64,000 nt of DNA from assembly GCA_905478415.1 (NCBI GenBank), contig CAJQIG010000002.1, forward strand, positions 250,699 to 314,698, given 5' to 3'. The stretch is from an uncultured Patescibacteria group bacterium. Its GTDB lineage: Bacteria; Patescibacteriota; Microgenomatia; UBA1400; PJMF01. Position numbers: made by a program. How positions within the stretch are numbered: the first letter of the stretch is position 1; each line of letters begins with the position of its first letter. Below, in pieces: positions 33,001 to 36,000 of this stretch.

Positions 33001-36000
33001 CTCGGCCACCCCAACCACAGTTTTCCCTGGCGAAGACATCTCATTTTTAGCTCCTGGCTGGCGAGCGCTCCATGCTTTAGCCTTCAAAATTTCAACTCAG
33101 ATTCAGGCAGGTGAACATGATTTTGATCGAGTTATCACCCTTGCTAAGGGCGGATGGCCCATGAGTCGTTCTGTAGCAGATTTCCTCGAAGTAGGCGAAG
33201 TCCAAAGTCTCGGCATCAAATTTTACACGGGGATCGACGAGCGAGAACCCAAACCTATTGTCTACCAAGATTTACCCATCGATATTTCAGGCGAAAAAGT
33301 ACTGCTTTTTGATGATGTAGCAGACACAGGCGAGTCACTTGACTTTGCAACTAAGTATTTAAAGCGCCGCGGCGCTAAATCGGTTACCACTGCTACCATT
33401 TACTACAAAGAACGCTCAAAAGTAACTCCAGACTATTTTGCAGCTCAAGTAGCCGAGTGGATTGTTTTTCCCTACGAGCTCGTCGAAACCTTGCGGATAG
33501 TTGGAACTCGTTGGTTGGTCGAAGGAGTAGACCCAGCAGAAGTTGTCGAACGGTTCGTATCCATGCGGTTCGAAAAAGACCAAGTAGAGCACTACGTGAA
33601 TACTGTCCTCCTGAGTGAATAAAAAACCCGTTTTTTGACATATGTATTGATTGCACACAATTGGTGCTTGCATTCTTTTTTTAAGCGACTAGAATAATCT
33701 TCTATAACATACATTGAGATTGCGAGGGCACCAAGCTTTCGCTCCCAAGAAACAGTGGTTTGATCTCCAAACAGAGAAAAAAACCGGGAAACCAAGTTGA
33801 GCCGAAGCTATAAGGGTGTTCTTTTTTTATTTAAAAAAAAGGCATCAAAATATATGTTATCAGACTTTAATAATATATATTAAGACTCTATCTTAAAATA
33901 GATCGAGATAAAGAGAGTAATAACTAAATTACTATAAGTCTCTTGAGTAAATTGCTAGTTGCAATCATTGAATATATATATTATTATAAGACTGTATCTA
34001 AATAAAACAGATACTGGAATAGCGAAAGGCACTAGGTCATCTTTCGCTCCCAAGTAACAACGGGCAGGCTTTCCCTCAGAGAAGCCAAGCCCAGGAAACC
34101 AAGTAGAGCAGAAGTTGAATGGGTGCCTCTTTTTGTACCCGTCACAACACAACAAGACGAAAACAAAACGCTATGAGTACACAAGAACAACACAACATTT
34201 ATCAAAAACAGCATAACCTTGATCAGCAGGGAGCCGGACCAGGTGGGGAATACCCAGACGGTCGTCTAACTCCAGCTCAGGTCGAACTTCCTCAAGTACA
34301 TCCAAATGAACTTCCGGCATTTGCATCCCCAGATGGGGATATCCGAGTTATTTATAAGCGAGATAGTATGGCGGTGCGGTACCAGAAGATGGTAGCTGAT
34401 TTATTTACCCACTATCCAGATAAAGCGGTTATTCTTGAAAAAACTATGAATGGTGAGTTTCTTGCCGAAGATATCAGGAGTATTTCTAGAGCTGCCGCTT
34501 TTTTAATGGATACGCTTCGAGCAGCTCAAGCAGGCGAGTATACCTATGATAGTGAGTATATGACTCAAACATTGTACCAGTATCAGGATATTTTCTTTCC
34601 TCAAGCAATGCAGTTGTTATCTGGAGAGGGAATGGACACCCAAGTGACTGCACAACATAAAAATCGAGACCCGCTCCTTCATACCTGCGAAGCTATGGCC
34701 AGCCTGGTTGAAACACTGATTGCGTTTAAAGATTTAGACGACCAAACTATTTCCCTCGAGATCATTGCTATTATGTTGCACGATTTTGGTAAGCTTCATA
34801 ATCCAAAAGATATCTCTCATCCGAGTGGATCCATTGTCTGGGCGTCCGAATGGATCACTTCAATTGCTAATCAGACGGCAGAATTAGTAACGAATAACAA
34901 CTCTCCAGAAGATCGAAACTATTTTGCAACTGAGGGTGCCCCAGTTATTGAAAGAGCAAGTCGTTATTCTGCTGAAGAAGCTGGATATATGCTTCGTTTC
35001 CTAATTCAGTTTCATGATATTGCTGGATTTATTGATGCGGGCCGATTATCGATGGAAGATGGCATGACGTTGCTCCTAAGTGATGATTATATTCCCAATA
35101 TGCAGGCATTACTTTCTTTGAAACGAATCCAAGATGCTGATATGACAGCTATCCCAGGTATGAGACAAGATTTTGTTGCTGCAAATAGAAGAATTCTTGA
35201 TATGTTAATGCAAAAGATTGCTACATTTAGAACTCAAAGTGGTTTTGAAGAAGAGTTGGTTCCCAGAGAGAACGTAAGGCCCATGAGTGATGCAGAAGTC
35301 AAACAGCTCTTTGCAACAGTTGCACCTGCTACTTTGACTCTCTAAGGGAAAAAGTGTCTCATCTGTTTGTCAGAGTTTTGTGTTATACTCGATATATAAG
35401 CTATGCAAAATATCTATAACAATACTCAGCTAGGAGTCCAGACATGATTAAGTCGGCACTCAGTTTCCAGTCAAGTTTTTCAACACTTTAATTCAAAAGT
35501 TTCTAGTTAGTGCTCCGTTTGGGCACTTTTTTTGTGTATATTGATGGTAGTTTGGCCCTGTGGGTTCAGACTCATTTAAAAAAAGAAAAGGGGAGAGAAA
35601 TGAAAAAAAAGAATTTGACCACCAGCGGAGTAGTCCGCGATGAAATTTTTGATTTTATCGAAGCTGAAGAACAACGCCAGCTCGAGATGATTGGTTTGAT
35701 TCCGTCCGAAAACGCGGTTTCACCAGAAGTTTCTTCAGTGTTATCTTCGTGTTTATCGAATAAATATGCCGAAGGCTATCCGGGAAAACGCTATTACGAA
35801 GGAAATCAGATCATAGATAAGGTTGAGAATGCTGCTCGTGACCGCGTCAAAGCCCTGTTTAAGGTGCCATATGTGAATGTGCAACCATATTCAGGTTCAC
35901 CGGCCAATTTGGCCATTTATTTCGCGCTGATGCAGCCAGGAGATGTCTTGTTGGGACTCAAACTTGCCAATGGTGGTCATTTGACACATGGACATCCAAA

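Follow-up and report, generated by a model that had tools for sequence, protein, structure and literature searches.

The window analysed here, a 64-kb stretch of DNA from an uncultured Patescibacteria group bacterium (contig CAJQIG010000002.1), contains two related and co-oriented elements on the + strand, copy A at 33722-33828 and copy B at 34021-34134, which lie within the 550-bp gap between a phosphoribosyltransferase (PRTase) gene (32981-33622) and the next open reading frame (ORF; 34173-35345), encoding an HD-fold protein. Comparison with their homologues indicates that these elements represent a real, conserved and structured RNA of an apparently undescribed class, and each copy is probably a cis-acting, riboswitch-type transcription attenuator belonging to an undescribed Patescibacteria RNA class which controls purine-salvage and guanosine monophosphate (GMP) synthesis genes. 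An earlier note on this DNA had listed a tandem riboswitch or attenuator before the HD gene among the possible identities of the two copies, and this option gained support once homologues were added, from covariation, from the hairpin P4 and from the position in cis.

Homologues in other genomes

A 25-base two-block pattern taken from the window matched 15 loci among the 185,579 GTDB species-representative genomes, for which ~0.03 chance matches are expected by arithmetic, and a second pattern gave 17 loci in metagenomes, including one (L025; homologous loci are referred to by such numbers) that is identical to the window. A covariance model (CM) trained on 31 sequences was then used for a search of the type the earlier note had suggested, and found more copies in related metagenome-derived assemblies, among them copies which had escaped the patterns, i.e. 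the second, tandem copies in L015 and L017; members outside the training set scored 47-81 bits. Loci fetched via protein homologues, with no RNA pattern involved, contained the element in L033, L034 and L036 (HD-fold protein) and in L037, L039 and L040 (PRTase), and no element was present within the surrounding DNA examined for the related PRTases of L038 (Beckwithbacteria) and L041.

In total this resulted in 44 distinct sequences, 31 of which were found by patterns requiring the core blocks, and the other 13 constitute the unbiased set. All 44 are located in assemblies of Patescibacteria (candidate phyla radiation, CPR), with the named records being Patescibacteria, Paceibacterota or Pacebacteria throughout (the NCBI phylum is now Minisyncoccota), and as far as found the RNA class appears confined to Patescibacteria. 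The suggestion of a lineage-specific RNA family has therefore held up, with 44 homologues restricted to Patescibacteria assemblies and no match in Rfam. Several assemblies are titled 'uncultured Pseudomonadales bacterium' or 'Methylococcaceae bacterium' (L001, L002, L003, L007, L011, L012 and L013, which are metagenome-assembled genomes from the third-party annotation section of ENA, and L009). These have the CPR-type gene order lgt-lspA-rluD-PRTase-RNA-X-glyA together with the CPR-specific RNA, and it looks as if the titles are wrong or the contigs mis-binned.

A conserved rod with a variable apical hairpin

Folded alone, the + strand of each copy gives the same unbranched rod, consisting of the helices P1, P2 and P3, a large internal loop made up of the conserved blocks, and an apical hairpin (P4), with a minimum free energy (MFE) of -31.1 kcal/mol (z -1.9) for copy A and -37.8 kcal/mol (z -2.67) for copy B. 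From 5' to 3', the first half of the consensus reads GCG-A-RRR, CACY, a linker of 3-16 nt, R-YUUUCGCUC, CCAAG-N-A-AC-R and the P4 hairpin, and the second half continues with GGAAACCAAGU-(N), GAGY-N-GAAAR, a linker of 5-20 nt, GGUGYY and U6-8. P1 is formed by GCACC/GGUGY directly before the U-run, P2 by CUUUC/GAAAG and P3 by GCUC/GAGC, and between P3 and P4 there is a nearly invariant internal loop of 12+12 nt, CCAAGNAACRA / GGAAACCAAGU (also written CCAAGNAAC / GGAAACCAAGU). The 5' GCG, UCGCUC, CCAAG, the AC of NAAC, GGAAACCAAG and GAG are identical in 41-44 of the 44 sequences, and the 13 unbiased sequences contain few core substitutions (GGAGACC, CCAAGC, CUCUCAAG and CCAAAA). No covariation was seen by eye between the N of CCAAG-N-AAC and the N of AAGU-N-GAGC.

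Over the 44 sequences, 93.3% of the cells of P1-P3 are paired, compared to 41-54% when the partners are slid, and changes on both sides are found in eight pairs (40 cells). The covariation score of the rod is 0.317 vs 0.215±0.010 in shuffles, with 0/500 shuffles reaching 0.317, although the alignment was fitted to the structure, which makes these statistics somewhat favourable to the rod; RNAalifold on a plain MAFFT alignment returned the same rod. The clearest evidence for structure is P4: this segment forms a hairpin in all 33 of 33 sequences, ending 0-2 nt before GGAAACC, with a span of 17-48 nt and sequences which are unrelated between members. Selection on RNA structure, which had been suggested from the two copies of the window, is hence borne out by a rod that covaries over 44 sequences, by the P4 hairpin and by the lack of a reading frame, and the covariation contradicts a mere DNA duplication with no excess of structure-preserving substitutions. 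That the + strand is the functional one follows from the many G-U pairs, the U-run and the orientation of the genes; these rule out the reverse complement of copy B, which also folds well.

P1 is 96% paired and abuts a run of at least four U residues, with U at each position in 40-44 of the 44 sequences. It closes a structured domain of ~80 nt, not a small loop, and a consensus terminator scan reports no terminator. The terminator-like closing stem that had been described for both copies is indeed present before the T-run, but forms the base of the whole rod instead of a hairpin of its own. The 3' strand of P1 is often the Shine-Dalgarno-like GGAGGUG, with the anti-Shine-Dalgarno-like CACCU as 5' strand (L003:4513-4616(-), L001, L018, L023 and L026). 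As GGAGG lies 11 nt upstream of the ATG of the downstream ORF in L003, the rod could there also mask the ribosome-binding site, which would combine transcriptional with translational control. Variation in the internal loop is found in a subgroup (L016, L022 and L032, and also L024) with CCAAGC[C/U/G]AC and AAGU-GAGC, the latter with one nucleotide deleted. The variant-loop subgroup precedes a different operon, with genes for a GNAT acetyltransferase, DUF488 and a 302-aa unknown protein downstream in L016, L022 and L032, and may represent a subclass with altered specificity.

A competing 5' hairpin

The 5' strand GCGARRG can pair with YUUUCGC, which is the strand forming the 5' side of P2 and half of P3 in the rod. 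This duplex is found in 31/31 pattern-found sequences tested, with energies of -5.7 to -13.6 kcal/mol, and in the 44-sequence alignment 90.9% of its cells are paired vs 42-52% when slid. The 5' stem with CTTTCGC(T), using wobble pairs in copy A and Watson-Crick pairs in copy B, had been recognised previously; the pairing is there, but as an alternative to the rod and not in addition to it. The best qualitative support for the competing hairpin comes from the copy-B lineage, where the shared strand changes from CUUUCGCU in the window to CCAUUCGCU in L015, L034 and L036 and to CCACUCGCU in L017, and is tracked both by its 5' partner (AAAG to ACUGG or ACGG to AUUGG) and by its 3' partner (GAAG to GAGUG to GUGUGG). 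When the U-tract is removed, which corresponds to the point at which termination is decided, the folds are nearly equal in energy, with a median free energy difference (rod minus hairpin) of -2.1 kcal/mol and 19 of the 33 sequences within ±3.

Genes downstream of the element

In every locus where the next gene is visible (~30 loci), the element is located upstream of this gene and co-oriented with it. The distance between the U-run and the start codon is about 6-110 nt, being 38 nt in the window (counted from the T-run of copy B), and in several loci the ATG follows merely 6-15 nt past the U-run. The downstream genes encode IMPDH (guaB) and GMP synthase (guaA) in L001, adenosine deaminase (add) and IMPDH (and GMP synthase) in L004, L023 and L026, and a PRTase, deoxynucleoside kinase (dNK) and GMP synthase in L027. 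A Gpt-type PRTase and GMP synthase (and IMPDH) follow the element in L037 and L039, an inosine-uridine nucleoside hydrolase in L018, SLOG, a UPRTase-like gene, dNK and HD in L020, a dNK operon in L029 and an AAA_33 kinase in L007, and members of a loose family of HD-fold proteins are encoded downstream in the window and in L002, L003, L005, L006, L009, L010, L017, L033, L034 and L036. The downstream genes share a single theme, purine salvage and GMP synthesis, in rearranged contexts, and this speaks against the link to nucleotide signalling that had been considered conceivable for the HD gene. In L037 two separate elements precede two different transcription units (PRTase-guaA and another gene), which is the behaviour of a cis-regulatory regulon and not of a single-copy housekeeping RNA. 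The elements are preceded by -10-like or TATAAT boxes, located 25-31 nt upstream in L037, L039 and L040, and those of L016 and L021 must have their own promoter, since the gene preceding them is transcribed divergently.

Orthologues of both copy A and copy B are found in L015, L017, L033, L034 and L036, giving a tandem arrangement in six genomes including the window, and three of these six tandem loci were retrieved via the protein and not via an RNA pattern. The downstream proteins of the tandem loci are 38-53% identical to that of the window, and together with the orthology of A and B in six genomes this indicates that the duplication is old and that both units have been retained. The elements of L040 are also in tandem; a possible short ORF (ATGACTAAGCAAAGACAAACC...) starts there a few nt past the first U-run, between the two elements (L040:4861-5035), where the annotation instead has a 55-aa gene on the opposite strand.

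Known RNA families and coding potential

A scan of the whole window with Rfam 15 (4227 covariance models) at gathering thresholds, as proposed earlier, left both copies unmatched and returned just two tRNAs and glmS, all elsewhere in the window, so that neither copy is a known family. At E<=10, the region 33550-34250 gave only noise (<=18 bits, vs thresholds of 40-70), and eight homologous loci gave nothing consistent at E<=5, with one sub-threshold CRISPR-DR10 match in one locus. The glmS glucosamine-6-phosphate ribozyme/riboswitch is located at 10554-10756 (+) and scores 56.5 bits vs a gathering score of 37; its presence means that classical RNA-based regulation is used in this genome. A full-text literature search, the coverage of which is incomplete so that an earlier description is possible, found no published description of the motif in Patescibacteria.

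A coding sequence was rejected as identity of the element, as there is no frame that is open in all members, the element lengths modulo 3 are distributed as 10/13/10, and insertions and deletions in P4 are free. The absence of a conserved frame and the free indels in P4 also led us to discount the small minus-strand ORFs overlapping the copies. The earlier note had named a protein-coding frame spanning the copies as an outcome that would speak against a structured RNA, and no conserved reading frame was found among the members.

The elements and their surroundings in the window

Copies A and B have a mean column identity of 80% in the alignment, and score 79.3 and 69.8 bits, respectively, with the CM, both being among its 31 training sequences. 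The window contains no further copies, the next best CM match having 14 bits with filters off. Within the 64 kb, the block CTTTCGCTCCCAAG(A/T)AACA is found solely at 33736-33754 and 34041-34059 and the block GGAAACCAAGT(T/A)GAGC(C/A)GAAG solely at 33787-33807 and 34094-34114, and CTCCCAAGNAAC and GGAAACCAAGTNGAG are likewise found nowhere except in the two copies. A repeat finder recovered both long shared blocks and a repeated spacer motif (family D2). The description of two co-oriented copies with these blocks and stems was confirmed in all its parts.

All parts of both elements are on the + strand. In copy A, CTTTCGC(T) pairs with the 5' competitor strand GCGAGGG (33722-28), and the element is closed by GGCACC/GGGTGTT. 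Its 5' half comprises the P1 5' strand GGCACC (33727-32), the shared strand CTTTCGCTC (33736-44, with the P3 5' strand GCTC inside at 33741-44) and the loop strand CCAAGAAACAG (33745-55), and the P4 hairpin (33757-85) is followed by the loop strand GGAAACCAAGT (33787-97), the P3 3' strand GAGC (33799-802), the P2 3' strand GAAGCT (33804-09), the P1 3' strand GGGTGTTC (33814-21) and a T7 run (33822-28). The equivalent partner of CTTTCGC(T) in copy B is the competitor strand AGCGAAAG (34021-28), and closure is by AGGCACT/GGGTGCCT, with the P1 5' strand AGGCACT at 34027-33, the shared strand CTTTCGCT(C) at 34041-49, the loop strand CCAAGTAACAA at 34050-60 and P4 at about 34062-92. The 3' half of copy B has the loop strand GGAAACCAAGT (34094-104), the P3 3' strand GAGC (34106-09), the P2 3' strand GAAG (34111-14), the P1 3' strand GGGTGCCT (34121-28) and a T5 run (34130-34).

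Upstream of copy A, a promoter-like box (TTGCAT, 16 nt, TAGAAT; 33668-33695, +) can be read from the sequence, with its -10 located 26 nt before the element. In L015 and L017, copy A is likewise preceded by -10-like or TATAAT boxes at a similar position, and the box of the window is a putative promoter of copy A. The AT-rich spacer between the copies (33829-34020, +) contains blocks conserved in the six genomes (the spacer is found at L015:1110-1334(-), L017:268-481, L033:2618-2808, L034:2605-2841 and L036:1039-1230). These consist of ATGTTATCAGACTTT (about 33852-66), two copies of AAATTRCTA (33926-34 and 33949-57), the palindrome ATTGCtagttGCAAT (33951-65), which overlaps a second promoter-like box (TTGCAA at 33959-64, 17 nt, TATTAT at 33982-87), and a small hairpin, GTATC/GATAC (33994-98 and 34010-14), with a loop length that varies among genomes; a TATnAGACT motif is repeated 3-4 times in the spacer. 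Stacked promoters, or an operator recognised by a DNA-binding regulator, are possible interpretations of the spacer blocks. Because a conserved promoter-like box separates A and B, the copies may not share a single 5' untranslated region (UTR), and unit B may also be transcribed on its own.

The gene upstream of copy A (32981-33622, +) encodes a Gpt-type 6-oxopurine PRTase (Pfam PF00156), with Sulfolobus GpT-1/GpT-2 and the Pyrococcus purine PRTase (4z1o, 4trb and 1vdm) as closest solved relatives at E about 1e-21. A PyrR-like partner was rejected for this neighbouring PRTase, as it is Gpt-type and has no PyrR among its PDB matches at E<=1e-3. The presumed regulated target downstream of copy B (34173-35345, +) encodes an HD-fold phosphohydrolase-like protein of 390 aa, for which no significant match was obtained from Pfam, from a sequence search of the PDB or from Foldseek. 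It belongs to a rare family with only seven homologues, in which H170, H203-D204, H281-D282 and D323 are invariant, and the earlier designation as HD-domain gene is right at the level of the fold. A 233-aa ORF with no Pfam match (32020-32721, -) is located between the pseudouridine synthase and PRTase genes of the window, and breaks the rluD-PRTase adjacency of related loci.

Proposed mechanism and alternative explanations

The RNA combines the general features of riboswitch architecture, i.e. a conserved domain in cis, functionally related genes downstream, and competing structures. In the mechanism we propose, the RNA would adopt one of two mutually exclusive folds, the rod or the 5' hairpin. 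The rod would serve for intrinsic termination, its terminator stem harbouring the sensing core, whereas formation of GCGARRG:YUUUCGC on the left shoulder of P2/P3 would block the rod, allowing RNA polymerase to continue into the gene downstream. The choice between the folds would be made by an effector bound at the invariant loop and P3, most likely a small metabolite derived from purines. We have a slight preference for an OFF switch, where binding of the effector would stabilise P3 and the rod in response to a guanine-family end product, since it is only in the rod that the loop is united with the invariant inner pairs of P3, and since the regulon converges on GMP, which suggests guanine-family feedback. 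The alternative is an ON switch with the terminator as default, in which the effector would hold the 5'-hairpin state as in HMP-PP riboswitches, and which would answer to a substrate, possibly hypoxanthine, xanthine, a nucleoside or phosphoribosyl pyrophosphate (PRPP). In the window, two complete units in series before the HD-fold gene would provide two successive termination decisions and hence a steeper response.

The chances appear evenly balanced for a more specific reading, namely a riboswitch class specific to Patescibacteria/CPR, the first of its kind, with a new rod aptamer carrying its 12+12-nt invariant loop in its own terminator and directly binding a 6-oxopurine or guanine-family metabolite. 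It would gate the salvage of host-derived purines to GMP (PRTase, add, guaB, guaA, nucleoside hydrolase, dNK and HD phosphohydrolases), with the tandem pair in one clade serving a switch-like response.

Several observations weigh against attenuation by a metabolite-binding RNA. The invariance of the core is inflated, as 31 of the 44 sequences were ascertained with patterns requiring it, and all 44 come from metagenome-derived assemblies. The loci are not independent, many sharing the block lgt-lspA-rluD-PRTase-RNA-X-glyA, and by our own estimate there are roughly eight to ten independent contexts. The terminator is atypical, with a P1 of 5-7 bp closing a large structured domain, and a simple terminator scan is empty because the 'loop' is the whole domain. 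Covariation of the 5' hairpin is weak, with both-side changes in two pairs (11 cells) and a score reached by 8/500 shuffles; this is because both strands are almost invariant, as expected of a strand serving two partners. With the U-tract included, as in the full-length RNA, the rod is the MFE structure in 32 of 33 sequences, and termination may thus be the default and the direction of the switch reversed. The promoter-like box between copies A and B argues against a simple tandem in a single UTR, and a protein effector would fit the same anatomy as a small molecule.

Such a protein would leave fold and logic unchanged, with a purine-sensing RNA-binding protein reading the internal loop in a PyrR- or TRAP-like manner. 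The large, nearly invariant and purine-rich loop with its repeated CCAAG could be a protein site, and in most loci a PRTase-fold gene lies directly upstream of the RNA, PyrR being a PRTase-fold RNA-binding regulator. The adjoining PRTase resembles the 6-oxopurine PRTases 4z1o, 4trb and 1vdm, however, with no PyrR at E<=1e-3, it is not beside the RNA in L004, L008, L010, L016 and L020, and in L037, L039 and L027 it is encoded downstream, where it would itself be regulated by the RNA. The Rfam PyrR site had no match even at E<=10, no other candidate regulator was found to be consistently linked to the RNA, and a small invariant core with freely covarying flanking helices is the usual signature of a metabolite aptamer; we consider attenuation by a protein unlikely.

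The copies might also be independent small RNAs of ~100 nt, each with its own promoter and terminator, acting in trans or sequestering a protein, with the neighbouring genes merely syntenic. This would explain the promoter-like box before each copy (one of them conserved between A and B), the terminator-like U-run at the end of each copy, the 190-nt spacer instead of a gene following copy A, and the fact that much of the gene association is inherited synteny. It does not sit well with the co-orientation and closeness to the start codon in ~30 loci (ATG 6-15 nt past the U-run in several), with downstream genes that vary yet stay within nucleotide salvage and GMP synthesis, with the copies before two different operons in L037, or with a conserved hairpin competing with the base of the terminator, for which a plain small RNA has no obvious use. 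A pair of small RNAs is the least supported of the options raised by the earlier note, given this hairpin and the ~30 co-oriented loci, and we regard it as distinctly improbable. Least credible of all, and practically excluded, is a complete lack of RNA function, i.e. a local duplication of an ordinary terminator region, or a DNA operator or REP/MITE-like repeat; tandem copies in AT-rich intergenic DNA with repeated motifs and a palindrome could give such an impression, but single copies exist at many loci in other genomes, the helices keep pairing through both-side changes and strand-specific G-U pairs, P4 is free in sequence and length yet always folds, and both the A and the B lineage have orthologues throughout the six genomes.

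Significance and comparison with known systems

Patescibacteria are ultrasmall, mostly uncultured, and live on other cells without de novo nucleotide synthesis, which makes purine salvage central to their host dependence. To our knowledge, almost nothing has been established about gene regulation in this group. If the proposed reading is right, an RNA switch before PRTase, add, guaB and guaA would mark a salvage regulon by sequence alone, and would also point to unannotated families drafted into the salvage pathway, such as the HD-fold protein of the window. Riboswitch research would gain a new fold and a second case in which the sensor is built into its own terminator, and at ~100 nt the RNA is amenable to binding and termination assays without culturing the organism. 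It could also provide a native regulatory part for CPR genetic tools, the need for which has been stated (PMC11665869).

With the purine riboswitch (RF00167; PMC9295807) the RNA shares a terminator leader before genes for the salvage and interconversion of purines (PRTase, guaA/guaB and add types), a likeness of presumed role and not of homology. The purine riboswitch has a three-way junction with kissing loops (L2/L3), whereas an unbranched rod with an internal loop is found here, and its model matched neither the copies nor the eight homologous loci, so that the RNA is not a member of this family. PyrR attenuators (RF00515) are similarly terminator/antiterminator systems located between genes of an operon for nucleotide metabolism, in which they recur, and have an adjoining PRTase-fold gene. 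They differ in their binding-loop consensus, which has no match here at E<=10, in using three competing folds (anti-antiterminator, antiterminator and terminator) instead of two, and in that the adjoining PRTase here is Gpt-type and not PyrR. The PRPP and guanine-PRPP tandem riboswitches (ykkC subtype 2b; Sherlock et al. 2018, PMC5912903) provide another case of RNA control of purine genes, sometimes with tandem sensors. The fold is again a different one and there is no ykkC-type Rfam match here, and two different aptamers form a logic gate in that system, compared to two units of the same class in the window.

Tandem homologous riboswitches, e.g. tandem TPP or c-di-GMP-I, were reportedly described by Welz & Breaker in 2007. 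Such 'pseudo-cooperative' arrangements, again with tandem TPP and c-di-GMP-I as examples, make the response steeper and more 'digital' (Sherlock et al. 2022, PMC9481103). The window resembles them in having two complete units of the same class, each with a terminator, in series before one ORF, and differs by the conserved promoter-like box and DNA blocks between the units.

By architectural analogy, the closest system is the HMP-PP (thiS motif) riboswitch, described as a 'terminator-embedded aptamer' that binds its ligand in the non-terminator (ON) fold (Atilho et al. 2019, PMC6478431). Because of this precedent, the direction of the switch cannot be read from the sequence in the RNA described here. 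The latter differs from HMP-PP in being about twice as long, without thiS-motif sequence or Rfam match, in having a 12+12-nt internal loop instead of a conserved hairpin loop, and in that its terminator stem is interrupted, whereas that of HMP-PP is perfect. The associated genes differ as well, being purine-salvage genes with no thiamin-related gene among the downstream genes examined, as opposed to thiS/thiamin HET-P for HMP-PP. What both have in common are conserved nucleotides inside the terminator stem before the U-run, a second fold in which 5' sequence is used for another stem that disrupts the base of the terminator, and a tip hairpin common to both folds, and HMP-PP is also often found in tandem with another riboswitch (PMC6478431). 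In this respect the RNA represents a type of system already known, the terminator/antiterminator RNA switch, with a fold that is new.

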